The notes below the pieces were generated by a model. That model searched no databases. It was given only the letters and a program-made list of their open reading frames with translations, and was not told the DNA's origin. From NCBI GenBank assembly GCA_027008775.1, contig JALVDV010000003.1, positions 12,340 through 76,339 on the forward strand: a stretch of 64,000 nucleotides of DNA, given 5' to 3'. This stretch comes from Candidatus Moraniibacteriota bacterium (GTDB lineage Bacteria > Patescibacteriota > Minisyncoccia > Moranbacterales > DUUL01). Positions 1,774 to 50,351 of this stretch are shown here, one piece after another. The position numbers and the translations under genes are program-made. Positions within the stretch are counted from its first letter, which is position 1, and each line of letters opens with the position of its first letter.

Positions 1774-1789
1774 GAAAACATAAGAATAT

Positions 1790-1861
1790 TGCCCGGTCGC
1801 CAAGTGGTAAGGCACATGGTTTTGGTCCATGCATTCGGGGGTTCGAATCCCTCCCGGGCAA
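1790..1861 (+). tRNA. tRNA-Gln (anticodon TTG)
   Basis: Cloverleaf read by eye: acceptor TGCCCGG/CCGGGCA, D-arm TCGCCAAGTGGTAAGGCA (close to E. coli tRNA-Gln), anticodon stem CATGG/CCATG with loop TTTTGGT, T-arm GGGGGTTCGAATCCCTC. Confidence 0.85.
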
Positions 1862-1935
1862 CAACAGAAAACAAGAGTCGGGAAATCAACCAAAATCAAA
1901 ATTTAATAGAAAACCCGCAAAAAAGCAAAAACAAA

Positions 1936-3102
1936 ATGCATTCAAATCAATTCAACTATCTCAAAATTCCCCACGCTTTTCATATATTCAGAAAAGGGAT
2001 TTATTCTTTGTATATTGCTCACGCTATCAGAGGATTTGTCGCCTCTTTAATAGGCTTTTTCATTCCTATTTATTTTTACAAAATCGGTTTAAACATTCCG
2101 GAAATTCTGCTTTATTATATTATTACTTATTTTTTCATCATCCTCTTCTCCATTGTCGTTGGCGGTATTGGCAATAAAGTTGGCCTCAAACACACTATGA
2201 TTATTAGCCTGCCTCTCTACCTACTCTACCTCGGCGGAATTATGCTCCTAAAAAAATATCCCTCCCCAACCTTCCTCTACAGCCTAGCTATTTTCGGCGC
2301 TTTCATTTCCGCCCTTTATTGGGTTCCTCTACATTGCCTTTTTGTCCGCCTCTCCTCTAACAAAAATCAGGATAAACAAAAACAAGTCGGGCTACTGTTC
2401 TCCGTCCGCAGTCTGGGTAGTATGATTGCGCCTCTCCTCGGCGGTTTAATATCCATTCTCTTTGGCTTTGAAGCTCTTTTCGCCACTGCTATCTTTATCT
2501 TAATTATTCCCATCATCATTCTCTTGAACTCCAAAGATATCCATCCCCATATCAATTTTTCCAGTGCCGATCTTTGGCTCTTTTTCCGTAAACACACTCG
2601 TCTTTTTATCATTATCCTCCTAGACGCTTTCGCCACTTTTGCTGACGATATTATTTGGCCATTGCTGGTCTTTCTCATCCTCCGCGATACAGTCAGTGTC
2701 GGCGTGGTTGGTAGTCTTATCGGCGTTGGCACAATTGTCTTCACTCTGATTATCGGTAAAATCATCGCCAAAAATGATTGGCAAAGAATTATCAAAGTAT
2801 CCGCCTTTATGTTGGCTTTTCTTTGGATTGTTAAAGCCTTTTTTGCCAATGAAAAAATCTCCATTTACACCATTTCCTTGGTGGCAGCCATGTTTGCTTT
2901 AATGTTTTCCGTCCCCCTTTCCAGTAAAACTTATTCTCTGGCAAAACGGAATAAAAACTTGGATGAGTTTATTGTCTTCCGCCAAATGGTCGTCTACCTC
3001 GGTAGACTGATGGCGGTTTTCTTTGCTATAATCTTGGTATCACAACTCAATATCTCTCTCTTACTAAGTGGAGTCGCCTACTTCATCATCAGCCTTTTCT
3101 AG
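1936..3102 (+). CDS. polytopic membrane protein, MFS-type transporter-like
   Basis: ORF 1789..3102 overlaps the tRNA at its 5' end; the first plausible start is internal Met (MHSNQF) at 1936; about 10-12 hydrophobic helices; start uncertain. Confidence 0.6.
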   Translation: MHSNQFNYLKIPHAFHIFRKGIYSLYIAHAIRGFVASLIGFFIPIYFYKIGLNIPEILLYYIITYFFIILFSIVVGGIGNKVGLKHTMIISLPLYLLYLGGIMLLKKYPSPTFLYSLAIFGAFISALYWVPLHCLFVRLSSNKNQDKQKQVGLLFSVRSLGSMIAPLLGGLISILFGFEALFATAIFILIIPIIILLNSKDIHPHINFSSADLWLFFRKHTRLFIIILLDAFATFADDIIWPLLVFLILRDTVSVGVVGSLIGVGTIVFTLIIGKIIAKNDWQRIIKVSAFMLAFLWIVKAFFANEKISIYTISLVAAMFALMFSVPLSSKTYSLAKRNKNLDEFIVFRQMVVYLGRLMAVFFAIILVSQLNISLLLSGVAYFIISLF

Positions 3103-5610: not shown

Positions 5611-6015
5611 TCAAGGGTTACAACGGCGTCTCAACAACTCTCTTAAGTGATCAGAGAGTTGTACATTCTTTCCCTTAACAATAACGGGGAAAGAACAAAC
5701 CTTGTATTTTTCATCGGGCAACTTGTAAATCACCCAGTTGCCACAATGAAAAAGAAACTCCGAATACACTCCACCCCCCCAATCCAAAAAAGCCGGGGGA
5801 TAAGCCTTTTTAGAAAAAGGTTGGCTTGGAGGGATGTAAATCTTTAAAAAATTTCCCTCCACATCAGCAAAAATCTCCTCCCTGTTATCGTTATTCACCA
5901 TCACTACTTCTCCCTGTTTTCTAAAGCATAAAAACAGGGAATCAATGAACAAGCAAATGAACGGTGACAGTAAGAATAAAAAAATTACCAAAAAACCAAT
6001 CACAAATCTCCTCAT
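5611..6015 (-). CDS. hypothetical membrane-anchored protein
   Basis: 134-aa ORF with N-terminal hydrophobic helix; strong RBS GAGGAGGG 8 nt upstream of ATG on the minus strand. Confidence 0.6.
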   Translation of the reverse strand: MRRFVIGFLVIFLFLLSPFICLFIDSLFLCFRKQGEVVMVNNDNREEIFADVEGNFLKIYIPPSQPFSKKAYPPAFLDWGGGVYSEFLFHCGNWVIYKLPDEKYKVCSFPVIVKGKNVQLSDHLRELLRRRCNP

Positions 6016-6243
6016 TTTTTTACCCTCCTCTTTTTTGGTATATTTTTAATATTTTAATGTACTTTAATACTTTGAAGAACTTACAAATGGTATACCAGCA
6101 AAAACAATTTTAATCAAGAGTCACTTCTGCCGAACTCCGAATGAAAACATTGCTTGCCAATTTTCAGACTAAAACATTATTGATCAAAAACCAATCCGCG
6201 CCACAGAAATCAAGTCCACTAATACACACAATTAATTAACCAA

Positions 6244-6740
6244 ACTCTTACATCAGCAACTCTACTGCGTTTTGCACCGAATAACTCACTTCATATCAAC
6301 AACTTCATTTATTTCACATCAAAAACCCCTTTCCACATCAAGAACTCTGACTTCATCTTGAAAACCATACTTTATACCGGAAACCTTATATTCTAATCAA
6401 AAAATCTCGTGCCAGAAACCATGTTTTACGACAGAGACACCAAAAGGGTTTATACCAAAGACTACATTTATACCGGAAATTTACATCAGAAACTACGTCT
6501 TATAAGAAAGATTGTAACCCACATTAAAAATTACATTTACATCGAAAACCTCACTTTTACATCACCAATTCCGTTACTTTACACATTAGAATATTTGCTT
6601 CACGTCAAAAACTCTATTCTATGTCAGAAACTCTATATTTTTACGCCTGACACTCTGCATTTTACACCAGAAAAATTTTACACCAAAAATCACATTTCAC
6701 ACCAGCAGTCCCACCTCAAAAAGAATCAAAAACCACACCT
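6244..6740. repeat. array of about 25 degenerate 19-20-bp tandem repeats (consensus approx TTTTACAYCAGAAACTCTA)
   Basis: Read directly: units such as tttcacatcaaaaacccct / ttccacatcaagaactctgac / tttataccggaaaccttata / tttacatcgaaaacctcac / ttttacaccagaaaaatt recur head-to-tail; the period is not a multiple of 3. Confidence 0.7.
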
Positions 6741-7010
6741 ACTATCATATAAGGTTGTATGATAGTATTTCACAAATCCGTTTAAAAAAGCCAAAAATCA
6801 AAAGTCAAAAAGCCAAAAAGTCATAATCACTCTTATATAAGGTTGTATGATAGTATTTTGCAAATCCGTTCAAAAAACATCAAAAAACAAAAGAACAAAA
6901 AACCATAACCACTATCATATAAGGTTATATGATAGTGTTTCACAAATCCACTCAAAAAAATAAAAAATAAAAAAGCGCATCTACTATCATATAAGGTTGT
7001 ATGATAGTAC
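6741..7010. repeat. four tandem 72-90-bp units, each with the inverted repeat ACTATCATA-N8-TATGATAGT followed by TTTCACAAATCC and an A-rich linker
   Basis: Palindromes at 6741-6766, 6829-6854 (2 mismatches in left arm), 6911-6936 (1 mismatch), 6983-7008. Confidence 0.8.
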
Positions 7011-7225
7011 TTCATAAAAAACCAATTTATTCAGCTTGTTTGCGGTTTTTTGATCTATTTTACCTATTCCTATCCATTGACCGCGCTGCCTCAATCATAA
7101 TGTAGCTCGCAAATACAAGTAAAAAGTATTATCACTTTCTCTTTTAAGAACAAATTTCAAAAACAAAAATACACTCACCCATCATCATTCAAAATTAGAA
7201 AACAGGAAACAAAAACGATCTATTT

Positions 7226-7260
7226 CAAACAAAAAAACCCGATAACGCCAACATGTTATC
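7226..7260 (-). terminator. rho-independent terminator after the DUF167 gene
   Basis: Minus-strand GATAAC-N8-GTTATC hairpin followed by GGGTTTTTTTGTTTG. Confidence 0.55.
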
Positions 7261-7356
7261 AGATTAACCGGCGCAATTACACGATAAAGGCGAAGAAATA
7301 TTCATCAAGACAGTAATCGGGCGGTGTCTCACCAAAATCGGCAAGAAATACAACTC

Positions 7357-7602
7357 CTAATTTTTATCAACCAACACATCAACAATTTTAATTCTGGCTG
7401 TTTGCCCAACCAGAATTCGCACGTTTGACTTGGAAACTCCGAAATACTCAGCCAAGAGTTTAATCAAGGCCTTGTTTGCCTTTCCCTTTTCTGGCGTCGC
7501 CGTCAACCAAACTTTATACTCATTCTCGGTAATCTTTTTAACCTGATTTTTTCCGGCTTTAGGTGTCACTTTTACATAAATTCTCTTCTGCTCCATTGTC
7601 AT
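7357..7602 (-). CDS. DUF167 (YggU-like) family protein
   Basis: 81 aa; KIYVKVTPKAGKNQV...KGKANKALIKLLAEYFGVSKSNVRILVGQTAR matches the YggU/UPF0235 family. Confidence 0.75.
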   Translation of the reverse strand: MTMEQKRIYVKVTPKAGKNQVKKITENEYKVWLTATPEKGKANKALIKLLAEYFGVSKSNVRILVGQTARIKIVDVLVDKN

Positions 7603-13651: not shown

Positions 13652-14358
13652 TCACTGACTTAAAAACTTTTTCACAAATTTTTCCGCCTCAACCAAAGCA
13701 TCCGGTGTACCAACCGGTTGCCAATGAGAAGCCAGAACTACCTTAGTTTTTCTTTGGGGATACATTTTAGCCAAAGTCTGTGGTAAACCAAATTCTTTTT
13801 TTGAAATAGTCACCGGCGAAATATTAAAATAATCTTGACCTAAAACATAGGCCCCCGTGTTCAACAAAATTTCCTTTCTAGAAGAAACCTTTTCTCTAAC
13901 CGCCCGCAAATAACCTTTTTCATCCACCTCTATTACACCGGACTGAAAATTATTTTTGGTCTCAATAGCCAGAACGGCCTGTTTGTATTTCATCAATTTC
14001 TCCAAATCTTTCTGCAAATACAGATCGTCACCCATCAAAACCAAAAACCTTCCTTTCACTAAATCTTTCACCAGAGAAACGGCTCCGGCTGTCCCATTTA
14101 AATCTTTTTGCCAAACATAATATACCTTTCTGCCCTCAAAATAATTCCCAAAAAATTTTTTGATAATCTCTCCCTTGTAAGAGACCACCAAAAAAACTTC
14201 TTTCACTTCTTTCGGCAAAGAACGAAAGCTGTAAACTAATTTTGGTCGGCCAGCTATTTCTAGCATCGGCTTTGGAATTTCCTCGGTTAAACTGCCCATT
14301 CTCGTTCCCCGACCAGCCGCCAAAATAACTGCCTGTTTCACATTACTCTTTTCCATAA
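13652..14358 (-). CDS. sugar-phosphate nucleotidyltransferase (NTP_transferase family)
   Basis: KQAVILAAGRGTRMGSLTEEIPKPML...LMGDDLY is the canonical GlmU/RmlA-type nucleotidyltransferase N-terminus; start chosen at MEKSNV. Confidence 0.8.
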
Positions 14359-14477
14359 AATTATTTAAGAAATTTATTCCTTCTAAAAACTTAACAAACA
14401 AATACAAATAAGCGCATAACTCCACACAAACGAACAATCTTACTTCCTCAAATACAACGCAAACATACAATGATCAA

Positions 14478-14570
14478 ACAATAGAGCAATAAAGCAATGG
14501 AATAATGGAGCAATAGAGCAATGAAACAATAAAACAATACAACAACATAATAATACAATTAACACAACAC
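14478..14570. repeat. degenerate ~9-bp tandem repeat (AGCAATRRA)n
   Basis: caatagagcaataaagcaatggaataatggagcaatagagcaatgaaacaataaaacaatac read directly. Confidence 0.5.
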
Positions 14571-14614: not shown

Positions 14615-14642
14615 TACTACCATATTACGTAATATGGTAGTA
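14615..14642. promoter_or_regulatory. 28-bp perfect palindrome TACTACCATATTACGTAATATGGTAGTA (putative operator, copy A)
   Basis: Self-reverse-complementary; identical to the copy at 46397-46424 and one mismatch from the copy at 45858-45885; lies between divergent genes. Confidence 0.6.
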
Positions 14643-14976: not shown

Positions 14977-15627
14977 ATGCAAATCACTTGGTACGGTCAA
15001 AGATGTTTCAAAATACAAACCAAGCCAAAACGAGGCGAAAAGGCGGTTACCATTATCACCGACCCTTTCATCAATGACATTGGCTTACGCCCTCCGCAAG
15101 GACAGAGTGATATCATCACTTTTTCCACTGTTACCCTGGCCGAAAAACAAAAGAAAAACAAAAAAAATCAAGCCTTTATTATAGATTCTGCCGGAGAATA
15201 CAGTCTAAAAGGAGTTACCATTGAAGGAATAGAATCTTTTCAAGATGAGCAAGAATTGAAAGGCGCCGGTCGCAATAACATTTTTGTCATTAAAAGCGAA
15301 GATATCAGCCTCTGTCACTTGGGACAACTGGGAGAAGATCTTACAGAGAAGCAAATTGAAACTATCGGAGCGGTAGATGTCTTGATGATTCCGGTCGGAC
15401 GACAGTTGTCAATCAAAAAAATAAAAAACATAATCGGTCAATTGGAGCCAGCCATTATTATTCCAATGGATTACAAGATTAAAGGACTTCAAGAAAAAGT
15501 GGAAAGCTGTGATACTTTTTGCCAAGAATTTGGTGGCAACCAAAAGGAAGCTCGTGACAAACTCAGTCTCAAAGCAAATGACCTCAAAGATTTGGAAAAC
15601 AATGTTGTAATCCTAAAGAGAAGCTAA
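14977..15627 (+). CDS. MBL-fold metal-dependent hydrolase (UPF0173-like)
   Basis: MQITWYGQRCFKIQT... matches the conserved N-terminus of the small metallo-beta-lactamase-fold hydrolases. Confidence 0.75.
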   Translation: MQITWYGQRCFKIQTKPKRGEKAVTIITDPFINDIGLRPPQGQSDIITFSTVTLAEKQKKNKKNQAFIIDSAGEYSLKGVTIEGIESFQDEQELKGAGRNNIFVIKSEDISLCHLGQLGEDLTEKQIETIGAVDVLMIPVGRQLSIKKIKNIIGQLEPAIIIPMDYKIKGLQEKVESCDTFCQEFGGNQKEARDKLSLKANDLKDLENNVVILKRS

Positions 15628-19007: not shown

Positions 19008-19469
19008 CTACCGACTGATTTTAATAATTTTATGCGCAACCGTTCGCCCATTCGGCAAAGTCATCTCCACTTCCTCACCCTTTTTCTTTCCTAGCAGGCA
19101 AGCCCCCAAAGGCGATTCATTGGAAATCAAACCGTTAGCCGGATCCGCTTCATTGGCGCCCACAATCGTAAAAACACTCTTGGTTCCATTTGTTTCCACT
19201 TCCACCACGCAACCGATTTTCACCACATTGATTGAATTATCCTCCTCCACCACTTCTGATGTCCTAATGATATTTTCCAATTCCATAATTCGTCCTTCAT
19301 TCTCTCTTTGCTGTCTCTTAGCTTCAATATACTCAGCGTTTTCACTTAAATCGCCTTGTTCTTTGGCTTCTTTTATGGCCTGAGCGATTGCCCTTCGTCT
19401 TGATAATTTGCGCTCGTCCAATTCTTTCTTTAATTTTTCAAATCCTTTTTTAGTTAAATATTTCATCAT
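19008..19469 (-). CDS. greA: transcription elongation factor GreA
   Basis: LTKKGFEKLKKELDE...GDLSENAEYIEAKRQQRENEGRI coiled-coil plus FKBP-like C-domain. Confidence 0.9.
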   Translation of the reverse strand: MMKYLTKKGFEKLKKELDERKLSRRRAIAQAIKEAKEQGDLSENAEYIEAKRQQRENEGRIMELENIIRTSEVVEEDNSINVVKIGCVVEVETNGTKSVFTIVGANEADPANGLISNESPLGACLLGKKKGEEVEMTLPNGRTVAHKIIKISR

Positions 19470-42678: not shown

Positions 42679-43236
42679 TCATTTTCCACTAATTTTGGCC
42701 ATCATTTCATTAATCTGCCGATAAGTCTCCTCTAACTCACCACCATTGTCAATCACAAAATCGGCGTATTGTTTCAACAAAGGCACATCTTTGTCCGCCG
42801 GTCGCTGATGATCTTTTTTAAATTCTGCAAAAGTCTTGGAATTGTCATCTGTTTTTTCTCCCCGCTTAATCAATCTCTCATAAGATACCTCCAATGGCGC
42901 TTCCACAAACACAAAAATAAAATCATCTATTTTATTTTTAAAATAATCCAATTCCGCCTTTTTTCTAATACCATCAAAAACAACCAATTCCGCTTCTTTT
43001 TTTTGAATGTCTTGCTCCAAAACTCTGGACAAAATATCCTTACCGAAAGCATTACGCAAAGCCTCAGCTAATCCGGCTAAATTTTGCCGCTCATTAGGCA
43101 AATAAAGCCTGTCTAAAACATCCTTTAAAATATTAGTATAAGCCACCGCTTCCGCCCCGTATTTCTCAATCAAATATCTTGTGATTGTTCCTTTGCCGGC
43201 GCCAATATTTCCGGCGATTCCAATTACTTTTTTCAT
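42679..43236 (-). CDS. P-loop nucleotide kinase, phage-T4-type dNMP-kinase-like (paralogue 1)
   Basis: GIAGNIGAGKGT Walker A; C-terminal ADFVIDNGGELEETYRQI resembles the T4 gp1 C-terminus (ITNDGSLEEL); paralogous to 49758..50351. Confidence 0.55.
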   Translation of the reverse strand: MKKVIGIAGNIGAGKGTITRYLIEKYGAEAVAYTNILKDVLDRLYLPNERQNLAGLAEALRNAFGKDILSRVLEQDIQKKEAELVVFDGIRKKAELDYFKNKIDDFIFVFVEAPLEVSYERLIKRGEKTDDNSKTFAEFKKDHQRPADKDVPLLKQYADFVIDNGGELEETYRQINEMMAKISGK

Positions 43237-43592
43237 TGTTTTAATTTTAGCTATCTAGTTATTAACCAAACGAAAGAAAATTAAAAATCAATTTTTATCC
43301 TTTTCTCGCGACATCCACCTTTTTGCCACTTCTACTACACCCTAACAATAGTTTTCTCTCTGTCAACTTTTGCCCTGCTCTCCCGACAACTTATTTTATT
43401 ATTTTCATTGAAAAAGCACAAACATACACTCTCCTCTGTTTATTGATTCGCCAGACAGTAAAAAAACCAGCTTTCACAGTCTTACAAAATTAAATCCTTG
43501 CCAACAATATAAACATGCAACAAATGCTAATTACAATACGTTGTCAGCTCCTACAAAAACATCAATCCCTCAAATTAACTTATCTTTTAAAG

Positions 43593-44261
43593 CTATTCCT
43601 CACCGGCAATCTCCTTTTCCAATCGCTCTAAAAATTCTTTAAAAAACGCTAGCCTTTTTCTGGCCATTTCCCTGGCTTTCTCAGTATACAATCTATCAAC
43701 CACAAATTTCAATTTTGTTTCAAACTCTATTTGCGGACTGTGTTTTGTTTTATCCTTGATTCTTCCCTTGAGCTTCCCTCCCAAATTTTCCTCAGCATAC
43801 TTTTCAATGTCAACGTCACTGTAAATTTTGGCCTTATTTTTCCCCACCCAAACAAAACTTCTCGCCACTCCTATCGCCCCCAGGGCATCCAGTTTGTCCG
43901 CATCAAATAAAATTTGCGCTTCCCTGCTCTTTGCTCTGCAACCTGTCCTGTACCGATGAGAAACTATACATTCTTGAACATGCCTTACCTGCTTTTCTGA
44001 AAAATCCAATTTCCGCAAAATGGGTCCCGCCATTTTCGCTCCCAAGACCGCATGATCGGTTTTTCCGGAAGAATCTTTATCCTCTTTAACTCTGGCAATA
44101 TCGTGCAGTAAAGCCGCCGCCCGCAACACGTCTTTATCAATATCGTCGCCTTTCGCCAATCGCAAAGCCAAATTATAAACTCGCAACACGTGCTCCATAT
44201 CGTGCGCTGAACAGGAAAGCTCTTTGGCCACAATTTCTTTGATTTTTTGAAACCTAGACAT
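43593..44261 (-). CDS. HD-domain phosphohydrolase
   Basis: H...HD motif (LLHDIARVKE) and downstream His/Asp residues. Confidence 0.8.
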   Translation of the reverse strand: MSRFQKIKEIVAKELSCSAHDMEHVLRVYNLALRLAKGDDIDKDVLRAAALLHDIARVKEDKDSSGKTDHAVLGAKMAGPILRKLDFSEKQVRHVQECIVSHRYRTGCRAKSREAQILFDADKLDALGAIGVARSFVWVGKNKAKIYSDVDIEKYAEENLGGKLKGRIKDKTKHSPQIEFETKLKFVVDRLYTEKAREMARKRLAFFKEFLERLEKEIAGEE

Positions 44262-45237
44262 TCAAATTCTTTTTAATTATCGTATCCAAAAAATCGCTCA
44301 ATTTCCACCCGGCCGCTCGCAACTCTTGCGGATATAAAGATGTCTCCGTCATACCGGGCAAAGTATTTACTTCCAGCACGTATAAACCCTTTTCCTCGTT
44401 AAAGATAAAATCTGTCCGGGAATAATCAGCCAAACCCAATACCTTGTGAACTCGCGCAGCTGTCCGTTGAATTTCCTTGGCCAAGTTTTCATCCTCAATC
44501 ACCGCCGGACAAATCTCCTCCACCGCATTTTCATACTTGGCTTCAAAGTCAAAAAATTCCTTTTGAGGAATAATCTCCACAATCGGCAACGGCTCAATTT
44601 GACCGGCTTTTTGTTCCAAAACACCACAAGTGAATTCCTTTCCCTCAATATACTCTTCCACCAAAGCCTCATTGCCAATCTCAAAAATCTCTCGCAAAGC
44701 TTGAGCCAATTCCTCAGCCGAGTCGCAAATAAAAACACCAAAGGAAGATCCGGACTCACTAGCTTTGGCCACCACTTTTTTCCCCTGAAATTTTTCCACA
44801 ATATTCACCGCTTCCTCATTCAAATTTCCAATCTTAGACCTTTCCAAAGACAAAAACGGTGGCGTTTTAATACCGCTTTTTTCAAACACCCATTTGCTGG
44901 CAATCTTAGAAAAAGATAATTGCGAAGATTTTGCCGAAGAGCCAACAAAATTAATCCTCTCTTTTTCTAAGACACTTTGCACCTGACCATCCTCTCCGTA
45001 AGAACCATGCAAAACCGAAAAAACTATGTCAACCCTGCCCTTTAAATCCCGCGGAATAATTTCTTTTCCTTCCAAAAACCACCGACCATCCTTGGCAACA
45101 AAAATGTCCACAATTTCATACTTACCCGAGTCCAAATTATTCTTGATTGTCTTGCCGGAATTCAAAGAAACATCATGTTCCAAAGAAACACCTCCACTCA
45201 ACACCCCCACTCTTATTTTCTTTGATTCATTTGCCAT
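44254..45237 (-). CDS. ddl: D-alanine--D-alanine ligase
   Basis: KIRVGVLSGGVSLEHDVSLNSGK, ATP-grasp fold, C-terminal LEVNTLPGMTETSLYP. Confidence 0.9.
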   Translation of the reverse strand: MANESKKIRVGVLSGGVSLEHDVSLNSGKTIKNNLDSGKYEIVDIFVAKDGRWFLEGKEIIPRDLKGRVDIVFSVLHGSYGEDGQVQSVLEKERINFVGSSAKSSQLSFSKIASKWVFEKSGIKTPPFLSLERSKIGNLNEEAVNIVEKFQGKKVVAKASESGSSFGVFICDSAEELAQALREIFEIGNEALVEEYIEGKEFTCGVLEQKAGQIEPLPIVEIIPQKEFFDFEAKYENAVEEICPAVIEDENLAKEIQRTAARVHKVLGLADYSRTDFIFNEEKGLYVLEVNTLPGMTETSLYPQELRAAGWKLSDFLDTIIKKNLNV

Positions 45238-45292
45238 ACTTCTGAATTTATCGCAAAATTAAAACTCTCAACGCCTCTTCTAAAGAAAACAA

Positions 45293-45622
45293 TTATCGAT
45301 CATCTCCATCTCCATTAATAACCCCTCTTTCTAAACGACTGTATAATTTTTCAATATTTTTTTGTGCTATTTCATCCAAATTTAAGCCAAGTTCCGTAGC
45401 TAACTGAGAAAGATACCACAGCACATCACCCAATTCTTTCTGCACACTCTCCCTAAAACCATCGTCAATAATTCCATCTTTATCTCTAATTAGTTTTTTA
45501 ATTTTTTCCGCTACCTCACCCGCCTCTCCAACTAAACCCAGAGTCGGATAAATAAAATTATTGTCTTTATTCGGATACAGGGCTGTCTTCCTTGACTTTT
45601 CTTGATACTCTTGAAAATTCAT
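45293..45622 (-). CDS. MazG-like nucleoside triphosphate pyrophosphohydrolase
   Basis: LGLVGEAGEVAEKIKK...ELGDVLWYLSQLA, the EExxE/D metal-binding helix pair; start at MNFQEY (the ORF extends upstream to 45769). Confidence 0.7.
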   Translation of the reverse strand: MNFQEYQEKSRKTALYPNKDNNFIYPTLGLVGEAGEVAEKIKKLIRDKDGIIDDGFRESVQKELGDVLWYLSQLATELGLNLDEIAQKNIEKLYSRLERGVINGDGDDR

Positions 45623-45857
45623 AAACAAATTTTTAATTCTTAATCTATAAAACACAATAGAAGGCATAACAATAAGAAGAATATCAGGCAAACCAACATT
45701 TTGTATCAAGCTTCTTTCAAAACTCCAAATCTGGTAGAAACAATAATTTTCCTCAATAATTCTCCTCAATATCAGCTTTCACACAAACACAAAATCCCAC
45801 CAAACTAAACCTCCACATCAACATCACCAAACATTTTCCCAACTCCCAACCATCACT

Positions 45858-45885
45858 TACTACCATATTACGTAATATAGTAGTA
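45858..45885. promoter_or_regulatory. 28-bp palindrome TACTACCATATTACGTAATATAGTAGTA (copy B, one mismatch)
   Basis: Between the TrpR-like gene (downstream side) and the MazG-like gene (upstream side). Confidence 0.6.
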
Positions 45886-45945
45886 AAAACAACGGCAGGG
45901 AAAACAACGACAGTGGCGCTGGTCAATTATCACAATAACAACATA

Positions 45946-46383
45946 CTACAACGATAATAAATCTTTCAAAAATCTGTATTGAGGATAACGATCTAACAAA
46001 CCTTCATTGTATCTGACACTGCTTCCTTTTCGGCCACCTTTCTCCTTCGGCCATCTTTTTATCATTACTTTTTTATAAGCTTCATCTCTTTCGTGTAACC
46101 ATCTATCCACTTTTGAAATAGTTCCGAATCCAACACCAATTTTCTGTCTGATATCATCAAAAGTATCTCCATCAATGATACACTTGGCTATTTGCAGTCT
46201 TCTCGCCAACATAAGTGATTCGCTGGGAGTCAGGAGACCGACAAATAAATCAATTATTTCCTGTTTGGTTCTCAAATTGGAAATTAAACCAAAGAAATCA
46301 CCGATAATTTTACGTCTTTTTTCTATGGGTATATTTTTTGGTTTTACCTTAGCCATATATTTTTGATACTTTTTATGTTCCAA
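45946..46383 (-). CDS. TrpR-like DNA-binding protein, YerC/YecD family
   Basis: LLTPSESLMLARRLQIAKCIIDGDTFDDIRQKIGVGFGTISKVDRWL parallels B. subtilis YerC SLAQRLQVAKMIKQGYTYATIEQESGASTATISRVKRSL (helix-turn-helix of the Trp repressor fold). Confidence 0.8.
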   Translation of the reverse strand: MEHKKYQKYMAKVKPKNIPIEKRRKIIGDFFGLISNLRTKQEIIDLFVGLLTPSESLMLARRLQIAKCIIDGDTFDDIRQKIGVGFGTISKVDRWLHERDEAYKKVMIKRWPKEKGGRKGSSVRYNEGLLDRYPQYRFLKDLLSL

Positions 46384-46396
46384 ATTACTCCTATAA

Positions 46397-46424
46397 TACT
46401 ACCATATTACGTAATATGGTAGTA
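46397..46424. promoter_or_regulatory. 28-bp perfect palindrome TACTACCATATTACGTAATATGGTAGTA (copy C) 14 bp upstream of the TrpR-like start codon
   Basis: Overlaps a TATAAT hexamer (46392-46397); position fits an autoregulatory operator. Confidence 0.65.
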
Positions 46425-46460
46425 TTTAGATTTTGATTACATGTAAATATACTGGATGGA

Positions 46461-46535
46461 AATTTCTGAAAACTTTTGAAAATTTCTAAAAACTTTTGAG
46501 AACTTTTGAAAACTTTTTAAAACTTTTTAAATAAT
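46461..46535. repeat. ~13-bp tandem repeat (GAAAACTTTTGAA)n
   Basis: tctgaaaacttttgaaaatttctaaaaacttttgagaacttttgaaaactttttaaaactttttaaa read directly. Confidence 0.5.
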
Positions 46536-46601
46536 TTCAAATAGTAATCCATAGCAATAACAGAAAATGGCAATCAGCGACATCACGATACGCACAGCGC
46601 C

Positions 46602-47288
46602 CTATTTTATCACTTCTCCAACTTTTTCCCAAACCATCTCCGCAATTTTTTCCCGACTGAGCAACTTCCCGTTGCGAGCACATCTAATATCAATCCAATT
46701 ATTTTGCTCTTTCACTAAATTCAAAGCGCTTCGTTTGGCATTTAATAAATGTTGCGGGTCACTTTCATGAGCATCTTTTTTCCCATCCAAATAGGCCTTT
46801 CGTTTTTTGGCATCTCCATTTTCCAACAATTGCAGACTCAATTTCAAAGGCACATTCAAAAAAACAATGGCATCCGGTTGCGGTATTTTAAAAATATCAA
46901 ACTCCATCACTTGCAACCATTTCAAAAATTCTCGCCTCTTTCGAGCGTCTTGAATTTTTCCTCCTTGATGAACTTGATTGGCGCTGGCATAACGGTCAGC
47001 AATAACCACAAAGCCATCTTCCAGCCATTTTTTAATTCTCTTACTGGATTCAAAACGATCAGCAGCGTACAAAACGGAAGCAATTTTCGGGTCCAATCCA
47101 ACAAAATCACCATGCTTTCCCGCCAAACACTCTCCGATAAACTTTCCAAAAAAATTATTATCATACTGTGGAAAGTCAATTGTTCTCACTCTAAATCCCT
47201 CTCGTCGCAATCGCTTGATCAACAAATCCGTTTGTGTTTTCTTGCCACTCCCATCTATTCCTTCTATCACAATTAATTTACCTTGCAT
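46602..47288 (-). CDS. tmk: thymidylate kinase
   Basis: GKLIVIEGIDGSGKKTQ P-loop, DRY motif (VIADRYASANQV), LID region; a basic N-terminal extension to 47354 is possible. Confidence 0.85.
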   Translation of the reverse strand: MQGKLIVIEGIDGSGKKTQTDLLIKRLRREGFRVRTIDFPQYDNNFFGKFIGECLAGKHGDFVGLDPKIASVLYAADRFESSKRIKKWLEDGFVVIADRYASANQVHQGGKIQDARKRREFLKWLQVMEFDIFKIPQPDAIVFLNVPLKLSLQLLENGDAKKRKAYLDGKKDAHESDPQHLLNAKRSALNLVKEQNNWIDIRCARNGKLLSREKIAEMVWEKVGEVIK

Positions 47289-47388
47289 CCTAGTATCTCT
47301 CTTCATCCTCCTCTGCGATTTCAATCTATTTTTCATTCGTCTTTTTTCTTTCATTTTTTACCCAAAACCGTGAAATTTTAAATTCAAC

Positions 47389-48735
47389 TTACTTTTTTTC
47401 CACAATATCCTGCTCTCCCCTCCGAACATCAAATCTATTTGACTCGTCGTCAATGTGAAGAACTAGACCATATTTACCAAACAGTTTTTTTAAACTGGTG
47501 ACCATTTTTAACATCTGTTCCACTAAAGTCGGATGCACAAACCTGGTGGAACGAAGCTCCACCAAATAAGTTAACGCCTTCAAATCTCCCACTACTCGAC
47601 AAGGAACTTGATAACCCATCGGGATGTAATATTGTTTAACAAATTTATCGGCCTTCAATTTTCCAATCAATTTCTTCTGTTCTCCTAAAAATTTCTCTGC
47701 CTCCTTTTTTAATTCTTCCGGCATCTGTTCCAAATACCATTTATGAAAACCATGTCGCATCGTCAATAAAGGCATTCGTTGAGCCACTGCTCGATGTCTT
47801 TGTAAATCCCGAAAAGAACCAAAGTCAAGCAAGAAATCATAACCGACCACTCCGGCAGTGGCAACGGAATTTGGCAATTCCGTTTTGGCCGGTCGTCTTT
47901 TTAGCTCCTGCTTGAATTCCGCCAAAACATCTTTATCCACCCCGTTAAATAGCAATTTAAACCCCTTCAATTTACTATTCTCAAAATAATATTTTTTCTG
48001 CATCAAATATTCATTATATTTCTCCGTCTTTTCATATCTTTTATGCCCAAAAGACTGGGGATACATTTTTCGCAACGCTTTTTCGGTTTTCTCAGCAATA
48101 TCCCGTACCTCCGCCAAAGGATGATGTCTCAACAACATTAACTCATCGGCAAATTGCCTAAAATTCATTCGCCATGCCACATTAGTCGTTGCTCCCGCCG
48201 GCAACCAACAACGAGTACTGTCAAAAGCTCGAGCGATAATCGCCTTTTCATAAATTTTTTCATTTTCACCTTCTTGACGAGGATGTTTTCTTCTAAGATG
48301 CTCTCGCATCGGCTCTTGAAGATGTAAATAAAAATCCCGCCAATTTTCCAATATCCTCTCGCCTGTCTTGGTCTTGGTGGGATTTAAAAAAATTTGTTTG
48401 GAAAAATCAACGTAACGAGTGGAGGCTTCCTGTCCGGAATACAGTCGCCAATCTTGAATGGCCTTTGCCGCCAACATTGAAACTCCTTCCACAAAAACCG
48501 TCGCGCTTCCACAATCACCAATTGATTTATGCCCGTAACCGACATAAAATTGCTCCATAAAATTCTCCGCCCCTTTTTCTTTTAAAACTTTTAAGTGATG
48601 TTTTATACCTCCGGTGGAACGAGAATGAAGGGCTTGCAACATTGCTTCCGCCTGCCCATCAATTTCCGCCCCATTATTCAAAACCAAAACAAAGCTCCCA
48701 TTTTGTTTTAATTTTTCCACACTATGTCCTTTCAT
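47389..48735 (-). CDS. thyX: flavin-dependent thymidylate synthase-like protein (long, divergent ThyX)
   Basis: GHKSIGDCGSATVFVEGVS...RLYSGQEASTRYV parallels the ThyX core (HxS..EH..FTF..GVSR...Q.SQRY); a second region has QRHRAVAQRMP with RHR but no conserved Ser; 448 aa, about twice a typical ThyX. Confidence 0.7.
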   Translation of the reverse strand: MKGHSVEKLKQNGSFVLVLNNGAEIDGQAEAMLQALHSRSTGGIKHHLKVLKEKGAENFMEQFYVGYGHKSIGDCGSATVFVEGVSMLAAKAIQDWRLYSGQEASTRYVDFSKQIFLNPTKTKTGERILENWRDFYLHLQEPMREHLRRKHPRQEGENEKIYEKAIIARAFDSTRCWLPAGATTNVAWRMNFRQFADELMLLRHHPLAEVRDIAEKTEKALRKMYPQSFGHKRYEKTEKYNEYLMQKKYYFENSKLKGFKLLFNGVDKDVLAEFKQELKRRPAKTELPNSVATAGVVGYDFLLDFGSFRDLQRHRAVAQRMPLLTMRHGFHKWYLEQMPEELKKEAEKFLGEQKKLIGKLKADKFVKQYYIPMGYQVPCRVVGDLKALTYLVELRSTRFVHPTLVEQMLKMVTSLKKLFGKYGLVLHIDDESNRFDVRRGEQDIVEKK

Positions 48736-48765
48736 TGTTTTATTTTTTAGTGCTTTTTATTTTGT

Positions 48766-48797
48766 AACAAAAAACTAGCTTTATAAACAAAAAGCTA
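48766..48797 (-). terminator. rho-independent terminator after dcd
   Basis: Minus strand TAGCTTT-N8-AAAGCTA then GTTTTTTGTT. Confidence 0.55.
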
Positions 48798-48908
48798 TCC
48801 CCCGGATAACTTTCATTCTACAACGTCCTTTCATAATCACACTCTAACACATCAATTTAAATTTTCCAAACACAAAGCTCTCCATTGTCATAAACAAAAA
48901 TTAAAAAA

Positions 48909-49469
48909 CTAAAAATTTTTATGCATACTCGACGGTTTCACCGTCTTATCACCATAGTACTTACTATTCAAACTTTTATCGCCATACGGACGCAAACAAG
49001 GCGATGACAATTTTTCAAAAGCCATCTGGGCAATAGGCATTTTATAATATAACTTAATTGGTAAAGAACCGGCATTAAAAAGTTCCAAAGTCATTTTTAA
49101 AGAATTGCCGGGATCCAAAAAGCCGGCCGTTGTATGCACAATCAACCCCAATCGCCCTAGAGAACTTTTACCCTCTAGACGAGCCACAAATTTCTCTGAC
49201 ACTCCGGTTTCTTCATAAACAAGAGCCAGAGCAAAGCTTCCCGGATGCAAAATAAATGATTTTTTATTATTGATGATTATTTTGGTCATCAAACCCTCGG
49301 CCGGCTTTTTAACGTCAATTACATGATTGTCAACCATATTAAAAACCATAAACTCTTTATCCAAACGCAAATCAACACTAGCCGGTTGAACCATTTTTTT
49401 ATTAAAGGGTTTAATAATAATTTCCCCCTTCCTCACCTCTTTGATGATATCTCTGTCTGAAAGTATCAT
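48909..49469 (-). CDS. dcd: dCTP deaminase
   Basis: MILSDRDI start, dUTPase-like fold with PASVDLRL and GSFALALVYE motifs. Confidence 0.9.
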   Translation of the reverse strand: MILSDRDIIKEVRKGEIIIKPFNKKMVQPASVDLRLDKEFMVFNMVDNHVIDVKKPAEGLMTKIIINNKKSFILHPGSFALALVYEETGVSEKFVARLEGKSSLGRLGLIVHTTAGFLDPGNSLKMTLELFNAGSLPIKLYYKMPIAQMAFEKLSSPCLRPYGDKSLNSKYYGDKTVKPSSMHKNF

Positions 49470-49757: not shown

Positions 49758-50351
49758 CTAACACTCCCCCTCCAGCGTGTCTAACTCCTGCTTCTTTTTC
49801 AAAATTATTTTCATCACATCGTCCACTTGCCACAACAATTCATCCATTGAACCGTTGTTGGTGATTTTAAAGTCGGCCTTGGCGCCTATTAAAGGAATAT
49901 CTTTCTCCGTTTCCGCCGTTGCCTCAAATTTTTTAAATTCTTCCAAAGTTTGCTTGTCATCGGATTTTTCCCCGCGACCAACCACTCTTTTCCATCTCAC
50001 TTCTTGATCAGCCGTCACATAAATAACATAATTATTCTTGAAGGAACGAATAAATTCCAAATCTTTCATCATCCTCATTCCATTCACGCACATTATTCCA
50101 TCGTGTTGTTCCACATAACGTCGCACTCCTTGGTGTAAAACATCTTCCCCAAAACGCTCCTTAAAAACCGAATACAGCCAAGACTGATCCTTTTTGGACG
50201 ACTTAGCAAAAAACAAATCCAAAGTTTTTTTCAAAGGCTGGCTGAAACGCAAAAGTTGCACATCATATCGCCTTTTCAAATAATGCGCCACCGTATCCTT
50301 ACCGCTTCCCGTTTCTCCCACCAGACCGATAACAATTTTTGACATTTTCAA
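49758..50351 (-). CDS. P-loop nucleotide kinase, phage-T4-type dNMP-kinase-like (paralogue 2)
   Basis: IGLVGETGSGKDTVAHYL vs T4 gp1 LSGVKRSGKDTTADFI; C-terminal ADFKITNNGSMDELLWQV vs GDLVITNDGSLEELFSKI. Confidence 0.6.
   Translation of the reverse strand: MKMSKIVIGLVGETGSGKDTVAHYLKRRYDVQLLRFSQPLKKTLDLFFAKSSKKDQSWLYSVFKERFGEDVLHQGVRRYVEQHDGIMCVNGMRMMKDLEFIRSFKNNYVIYVTADQEVRWKRVVGRGEKSDDKQTLEEFKKFEATAETEKDIPLIGAKADFKITNNGSMDELLWQVDDVMKIILKKKQELDTLEGEC

Follow-up and report, generated by a model that had tools for sequence, protein, structure and literature searches.

Are the palindromes on either side of a TrpR-like gene in a Candidatus Moraniibacteriota genome the operators of the protein encoded between them? 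The question arises from a stretch of 64,000 nucleotides (assembly GCA_027008775.1, contig JALVDV010000003.1, positions 12,340 to 76,339; hereafter the window), in which the gene for a long YerC/TrpR-like regulator, here termed YerC-long, lies between two nearby copies of a 28-bp palindrome. An initial annotation of this DNA had read the palindrome as an autoregulatory operator of the adjacent regulator. Our comparative analysis supports this reading: palindromes bracket the gene in loci selected on protein homology alone, arm sequences covary with the recognition helix, the site geometry is HisR-like, the sites stand out as footprints in diverged DNA, and copy numbers are low. Because three independent comparative lines of evidence converge on the operator assignment, we consider it strongly supported and put the probability that the palindromes are operators of YerC-long, a dimeric helix-turn-helix (HTH) regulator of the TrpR/HisR fold, at roughly 0.8. 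The best-supported step of this reading is the binding of a YerC-long dimer to each palindrome, which we infer from sequence comparison.

Palindromes and the gene they bracket

The 28-mer TACTACCATATTACGTAATATGGTAGTA is exactly self-complementary and occurs without mismatch at 14615-14642 and 46397-46424, and with one mismatch (G to A) at 45858-45885. These three positions and the single substitution had been given in the initial annotation and are confirmed by the sequence and by 100 dinucleotide-preserving shuffles, none of which gave any match (3 observed vs 0.00 expected). All three copies are thus real, but the count of three had missed four sites with the same arms at 6740-7009 (Table 1). 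These emerged from a repeat search, combine the arms of the 28-mer with a different, non-palindromic centre (TACTATCATAT-AAGGTT-GTATGATAGTA) and sit in tandem units of ~82 bp within a 1.3-kb stretch free of open reading frames (ORFs). When up to four mismatches over the 22 arm positions are allowed, the window as a whole contains exactly seven sites (0.02 expected) and no weaker ones. The description of the palindrome as having no internal spacer is misleading, since conservation is confined to its 11-nt arms, the 6 nt between them differing freely from genome to genome.

The ORF flanked by the two nearby copies was listed as 45946-46383 on the minus strand, and the public gene call of a 94%-identical homologue (P0001, 145 aa) likewise starts at the TTG equivalent to 46383. 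As the N-terminal MAK is conserved across homologues, we place the true start at ATG 46356 (136 aa) and not at TTG 46383; the gap between the 5' copy and the start codon is therefore 40 nt, not the 14 nt first reported. YerC-long matches the Pfam family Trp_repressor (PF01371; 54.3 bits, cutoff 27, residues 30-107), marginally reaches the cutoff of the NCBIfam model for YerC/YecD TrpR-related proteins (TIGR02531; 42.7 vs 42.2 bits) and falls below that of the TrpR equivalog (TIGR01321; 24.8 vs 67.25 bits). Its PDB matches are 3frw, 3kor and 3g1c (E-values 1e-8 to 1e-10). The AlphaFold model, with a predicted local distance difference test (pLDDT) score of 82-89 in the core, has an all-helical TrpR fold with an HTH, and Foldseek returned target-normalised template-modelling (TM) scores of 0.75-0.80 to 3kor, 3g1c, 3frw, 1tro and 1trr. 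The helical core, in which the HTH occupies residues 66-87 and the recognition helix residues 77-86, is followed by a C-terminal extension of ~40 extra residues, consisting of a Lys/Arg-rich disordered linker (102-119) and a helix (120-134) with a conserved LDRYPxHRxL motif. The family comprises 729 clusters at 50% identity (E ≤ 1e-3); its nearest 150 cluster representatives are mostly 130-190 aa long, and the LDRYPxHRxL tail is common to the homologues. In L099 (2301-2624), and also in L092, L100 and L101, a second, short Trp_repressor-family gene (103-107 aa) lies 150-260 nt downstream of the long one, the two forming a tandem paralogue pair.

For an unbiased view of the association, six long homologues were aligned and 80 metagenome loci were retrieved on protein homology alone, ignoring the site. 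Palindromes were called irrespective of their sequence (11-6-11 layout, ≥10 of 11 arm pairs) within 150 nt on each side of the gene, and the background was taken from DNA more than 500 nt away (0.021 per 150 nt). A palindrome lies upstream of the gene in 42 of the 72 evaluable loci (binomial p ~1e-50) and downstream in 52 of 72 (p ~6e-70), while 34 of 64 evaluable loci have one on both sides (p not computed). The two flanking sites are a median of 536 bp apart, and the 3' site starts a median of 25 nt past the stop codon. Of the loci whose downstream neighbour is convergent, 12 of 15 have a 3' site, as do 34 of the 49 with a co-directional one; its retention even next to a convergent neighbour suggests that it is part of the regulator's own module and not the promoter of the next gene. 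The genes adjoining YerC-long vary across lineages (WecG/TagA, serine hydrolase, LigT, TatD, MetRS, DUF3467). Extra sites crowd near the gene in many lineages, L060 having seven around it and L044 four genes in a row with a site between each, and arrays of 3-7 sites, comparable to that of the window, occur in L060, L044 and L047. In L088, a YerC-like gene is found without an AT-rich flanking palindrome, and a GC-rich palindrome, CCCTTCTCCGAC-ATAT-GTCGGAGAAGGG, is present elsewhere (at 1248, 2458 and 8747); it may be a strongly diverged operator that has kept the ATAT centre, or it may be unrelated.

The association also appears from the side of the palindrome. A scan of GTDB, with one genome per species (596 Gb, the window's own genome not among them) and the pattern TACTAYCATAT-N6-RTATGRTAGTA, returned 31 loci, mostly from metagenome-assembled genomes (MAGs) of Moranbacteria/Moraniibacteriota and Saccharibacteria, together with MAGs labelled Bdellovibrionales (label as given). 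Seven of the 31, spread over all three of these groups, encode a YerC-long homologue ≤1.1 kb from the site, and L024 repeats the site-gene-site layout. Together with the 80 protein-chosen loci, these show that related genomes keep the palindrome beside yerC-like genes. Arm identity among the 31 loci is by design, as the search pattern fixed the 11-nt arms; the central 6 nt were free and read TACGTA, AATATT, AACGTT, ATTAAT, TCTAGT and others. Saccharibacteria loci at 55-62% GC retain the AT-rich site. Two hits in Clostridia/Firmicutes at 29% GC (L009, upstream of codY, and L014) are within chance expectation. An exact copy of the window's 28-mer is found at L027:4054-4081, flanked by a glycosyltransferase gene and an unannotated ORF, on a contig with 57.5% GC and the label Fimivivens (Firmicutes). 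This match is too unlikely for chance; mis-binning or a wider host range may account for it.

Seven copies in 64 kb, a tandem array among them, and a gene whose neighbours vary between lineages could also point to a dispersed selfish or structural repeat, akin to repetitive extragenic palindromes (REP), bacterial interspersed mosaic elements (BIME) or miniature inverted-repeat transposable elements (MITE), or to a mobile site-gene-site cassette. Against this stand the copy numbers: a check for dozens to hundreds of dispersed copies found ~1-7 per genome or window, with 1-6 strict matches per representative genome and a single one on a contig of 1.3 Mb, and the window holds no degenerate copies. 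The same arms recur across Patescibacteria classes, unlike those of REP families, and gene order is stable among close relatives. YerC-long has no transposase or recombinase domain among its Pfam and TIGRFAM-type profile matches, and the idea of a mobile element was dropped when no long-form homologues were found among 50,697 phage and 72,556 plasmid records. We regard a repeat or cassette as highly improbable.

Arm sequence and recognition helix

The arms vary by lineage (e.g. TATTACCATAT, TACTACAATAT, TACATCAATAT, TACTTTCATAT, TACTATGATAT and TGTGTCCATAT) around the half-site consensus TAYTWCMATAT, with a near-invariant ATAT core. Both arms change together, and one variant is common to all copies within a genome. 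We measured the association of protein columns with arm sequence in 35 dereplicated proteins, with all 135 alignment columns serving as the shared-phylogeny null. The three most associated columns, F77, D84 and S81, all lie in the recognition helix, for which the chance that the top three fall within these 10 columns is ~3e-4; G74 and G78 are also among the top six. Residue 77 is F, Y or H where the arm reads TACTAC or TACTAT, V or A with TACATC, T or S with TACT[TC]TC, and I or L with TATTACC, and identical residue-arm pairings turn up again in otherwise divergent clades. F77 aligns with Ile79 of TrpR, a DNA-contact residue (PMC9413887).

Conservation and geometry of the site point in the same direction. 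In alignments of orthologous upstream regions, the palindrome stands out as an island of conservation where the surrounding intergenic DNA has diverged; in L035 both arms have changed symmetrically (a double change, CCACAT...ATGTGG), and relatives at 74-94% protein identity share the one mismatch of the 3' copy. The inner 20 bp, ACCATAT-N6-ATATGGT, have a 7+6+7 geometry, which four further conserved bp on each side extend to 28 bp. In the mechanism that we propose, the recognition helix of each monomer would read one 11-nt arm, and the central 6 nt would serve as a non-contacted spacer.

If the palindromes acted as hairpins of RNA (or as cruciforms), for instance as terminators, stem-loops that stabilise mRNA or sites of processing, and not as protein operators, this would fit the folding of each copy into a 12-14-bp hairpin (-12 to -19 kcal/mol, z-score -4 to -6), the position of the 3' copies shortly past the stop codon with their persistence between convergent genes, and the flagging of 46395-46426 (plus strand) as terminator-like by a simple scan. 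The stems, however, are AT-rich with three G-C pairs and have no U-tract in the gene-sense direction, so they do not qualify as intrinsic terminators. Mismatches within the arms are not biased towards G-U pairs on the sense strand (10 sense, 11 antisense, 8 other), the sequence and not just the pairing is conserved across classes, and the arms are uniform within a genome. A purely RNA role, moreover, does not predict arm changes that follow the recognition helix of the neighbouring protein, and we judge this explanation very improbable.

The same covariation bears on the idea that another protein binds the palindromes and that the YerC-long gene is simply its most conserved target. Many sites do lie away from the gene (the 14615 site and the array in the window; greA, thyX and PGM in relatives), and the case for binding by YerC-long is an indirect one. 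Yet the covariation peaks in the recognition helix of YerC-long and not elsewhere in the protein, and the site geometry fits its family. Autoregulatory sites are typical of TrpR and precede the own gene at about half of hisR genes (PMC9413887). Within the window, no other recognisable sequence-specific DNA-binding protein was found among ~50 annotated ORFs; the earlier description of YerC-long as the only DNA-binding regulator there holds in this sense, but several small ORFs have no Pfam match and the check is not exhaustive. A different binder seems very improbable to us.

Promoter context, further sites and neighbouring genes

On the gene's strand, a -10-like hexamer, TATTAT, starts at position 27 of the 5' palindrome. 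With TATTAT as the -10 element, the operator would lie at about -39 to -12. The TATAAT that overlaps this copy, to which the initial annotation had drawn attention, is read on the plus strand (46392-46397), facing away from the gene. Simple scans for promoters and terminators in the vicinity of the sites were not informative. The arm TGGTAGTAT resembles the organism's extended -10 (TGnTATAAT) and was considered as a promoter element in itself; this was rejected, as the base after the palindrome, the hexamer's final T, is not conserved across loci. Further upstream, 40-110 nt from the 5' palindrome, GAAAACTTTT is repeated 6.5 times with an exact 10-bp period (46461-46531). Phased A/T tracts usually lead to intrinsically bent DNA. 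The repeat is absent in L113 and L114, relatives at 94% protein identity.

In the preferred reading, the 5' operator would span the core promoter of the regulator's own gene, so that binding would repress it and produce negative autoregulation in response to a presumed metabolite effector. The 3' operator would complete the site-gene-site module and most likely cooperate with the 5' site, by looping over ~540 bp, by forming a roadblock that insulates the gene from read-through, or by both.

Several observations weigh against this reading. Whereas the site lies at -39 to -12 in the window's clade, another clade centres it near -42 upstream of an extended -10, which is also compatible with activation, and further clades place it over the -10 or the leader. 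Because clades differ in where the site lies relative to the promoter, the sign of regulation is uncertain: repression is plausible for the window's clade only, and the sign is secure for no lineage. When the 11-6-11 layout is held fixed, no site can be detected in about 30-40% of homologous loci. The spacing of the two flanking sites gives no sign of helical phasing (Rayleigh p > 0.1), and sites between convergent genes or around greA (L016) are not explained by simple promoter occlusion. Finally, with arm centres spaced 17 bp apart, the site exceeds the TrpR and HisR operators in length by 8 bp; it is possible that two dimers occupy each site, or that the basic C-terminal linker makes additional contacts.

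Some of these points would be accommodated if YerC-long, once bound to the sites, chiefly activated transcription or had an architectural, boundary or roadblock function, instead of being a metabolite-responsive autorepressor. A centre near -42 is the classic class-II activator position. Sites also follow directly on stop codons, separate convergent or consecutive genes (the latter in L044), flank greA (L016) and form arrays of 3-7. The characterised family members TrpR and HisR, on the other hand, are corepressor-dependent repressors, TrpR being autoregulated (PMC9413887), and the window's clade has the site over the -35 to -10 region; we therefore hold this alternative to be unlikely, if worth keeping in mind. 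In a bolder version, which we find rather doubtful, YerC-long would serve as a boundary protein throughout the Patescibacteria, with its palindromes delimiting transcription units. Dimers bound there, perhaps bridged via the conserved C-terminal helix, would then be roadblocks or insulators that replace intrinsic terminators past stop codons, between convergent genes, around the own gene and others such as greA, and in arrays.

For the autorepressor that we favour, the few further sites per genome would amount to a small regulon, represented in the window by the 14615 site and the four-site array, and in relatives by sites that adjoin genes of sugar-nucleotide and (d)NTP enzymes. The site-adjoining genes elsewhere include RmlD (247.6 bits vs a cutoff of 224), RmlA-like, GalU-like, PGM/PMM, ThyX and Ham1, as well as the unrelated TsaE, GreA, a MurC-like ligase and hydrolases. 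In the Moranbacteria locus L006 the site adjoins nucleotidyltransferase genes, as it does at 14615. Although sugar-nucleotide and (d)NTP genes recur, no statistically defensible functional theme was found among the site-adjoining genes, and we put forward a link to nucleotide or nucleotide-sugar metabolism as a hypothesis. The earlier suggestion that the adjacent dNTP genes belong to the regulon is weak, given that the module of the regulator itself includes the 3' copy and that the neighbours are heterogeneous across lineages. A particular arrangement is seen in a Saccharibacteria MAG (L016:5709-6253), where two palindromes bracket greA and not the regulator, and the gene for the NTP pyrophosphatase Ham1 follows closely downstream; no site accompanies greA in the window (19008-19469).

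Table 1 Coordinates of palindromic sites, the regulator gene and adjoining features in the window (a dot marks features given without strand).
Feature	Position	Strand	Basis or context
Four-site array	6740-7009 (6740-6767, 6828-6855, 6910-6937, 6982-7009)	.	Repeat search and mismatch-tolerant scan
Sugar-1-phosphate nucleotidyltransferase gene, generic	13652-14356	-	Left neighbour of the 14615 site
Third copy of the palindrome, perfect	14615-14642	.	500-bp divergent intergenic region between 13652-14356 (-) and 14977-15627 (+)
Metallo-hydrolase gene	14977-15627	+	Right neighbour of the 14615 site
MazG-type NTP pyrophosphohydrolase gene	45293-45667	-	Pfam PF03819; downstream of the 3' site; possible target
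3' operator (predicted), one arm mismatch	45858-45885	.	Starts 60 nt past the stop codon
YerC-long gene (long YerC/TrpR-like regulator), 136 aa	45946-46356, stop codon included	-	PF01371 match; ATG from conserved MAK N-terminus
Candidate -10 hexamer TATTAT	46393-46398 (read 46398-46393)	-	Sequence; TATAAT in L035; conserved in L035, L113 and L114
5' operator (predicted), perfect 28-bp palindrome	46397-46424	.	40 nt from its end to the ATG; conserved island

The window (39% GC) derives from the cellular genome of an ultra-small bacterium and has a Patescibacteria-like gene set (gyrA, ftsK, ddl, murJ and scattered tRNAs), and its nearest relatives are labelled Moranbacteria. YerC-long lies within a minus-strand cluster for dTTP synthesis (42679-49469) that holds genes for dCTP deaminase, ThyX, Tmk, the regulator, MazG, Ddl, an HD phosphohydrolase and a deoxynucleoside kinase (dNK)-like kinase; the gene order yerC-MazG-Ddl-HD is kept in L113-L115. 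The ThyX of this cluster is unusually long (448 aa), and a second gene resembling a deoxynucleoside monophosphate (dNMP) kinase is located at 49758-50345. A tRNA-Gln at 1790-1862 overlaps the beginning of the listed ORF 1789-3102, whose true start should therefore be further downstream, at ATG 1816 or later.

The four-site array forms the right part of a 1.3-kb stretch without a convincing ORF (6016-7356), the left part of which (~6420-6720) is dense in TTTACA(C/T)C-like short repeats; a terminator-like hairpin for minus-strand genes is present at 7236-7265. Rfam gave no match at E ≤ 1 for the region 5900-7500, and over the whole window, at gathering thresholds, it returned tRNAs only. Short repeats of the AGCAATA/ACAATA type are also found at 14469-14560, directly left of the 14615 palindrome in the same divergent intergenic region.

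Relation to known regulators and repeats

YerC-long appears to represent a long, Patescibacteria-centred branch of TrpR/HisR proteins with its own predicted 28-bp operator and a conserved site-gene-site module. The HisR/TrpR family and the HisR operator are already known; in open-access full-text literature we found no description of the longer subfamily or of its motif, and no regulator-operator pair for it. Transcription factors are very scarce in Patescibacteria (the Candidate Phyla Radiation, CPR) and, to our knowledge, hardly any regulator has been paired with its operator there, so that a testable pair in this group is of value. The analysis yields a widespread family, a predicted operator, lineage-wise residue-to-arm pairings that make falsifiable predictions (e.g. 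for F77V), and an unusual site-gene-site module. It also indicates that the annotation YerC/YecD spans at least two functionally different groups, HisR and the long form. Organisms carrying the long form are not expected to make histidine.

Among systems with similar sites, NrdR, which regulates genes of dNTP synthesis, is a Zn-ribbon and ATP-cone protein whose 16-bp boxes are paired (acaCwAtATaTwGtgt). Being AT-rich palindromes close to genes of nucleotide metabolism, the niche that the initial annotation had suggested, these boxes are a functional analogy only, as YerC-long is TrpR-like and its sites match the NrdR-box in neither layout nor sequence. With REP/BIME elements and intrinsic terminators, the sites share the form of intergenic perfect palindromes, some of them just past stop codons; they differ in their low copy number, their cross-class sequence conservation, their AT-rich stems without a U-tract, and their tie to one regulator gene.

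Closer parallels are found within the family. E. coli TrpR, which is autoregulated, as predicted here for YerC-long, shares the intertwined-dimer HTH fold, as the TM scores to 1tro and 1trr indicate, and in a by-eye alignment T43 and R53 of YerC-long correspond to T44 and R54 of the Trp pocket. Identity is only ~21%, however, and the TrpR operator, TGTACTAGTTAACTAGTACA, has half-sites 8 bp apart.

The nearest characterised relative is HisR, and the view that the YerC/YecD family is essentially uncharacterised is outdated: B. subtilis YerC is HisR, a histidine-dependent repressor of the TrpR family for which a regulon and a 20-bp operator have been defined (Ashniev et al. 2022, PMC9413887), and whose binding was validated in vitro for R. 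gnavus (PMC9413887). According to the same source, HisR is shorter than 100 aa and its operator is cacTTTA-N6-TAAAgtg (consensus cacTTTAnnnnnnTAAAgtg). YerC-long, ~30-34% identical to the solved HisR-type structures, has 136 aa (homologues 130-190) with the basic linker and LDRYPxHRxL helix, an extension that HisR does not have, and judged by eye only, it lacks most of the acidic residues that were highlighted in helix 2 of HisR. Its predicted operator is 28 bp long, TAYTWCMATAT-N6-ATATKGWARTA, and not the HisR consensus. No histidine biosynthesis or transport gene is among ~45 annotated genes adjacent to YerC-long sites, and a conserved second site past the stop codon is not mentioned for HisR in the sections of PMC9413887 on which this comparison draws. 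What the two regulators have in common is one Pfam family and fold, a palindromic 7+6+7 core with a variable 6-nt centre, and the frequent position of a site upstream of the regulator's own gene.

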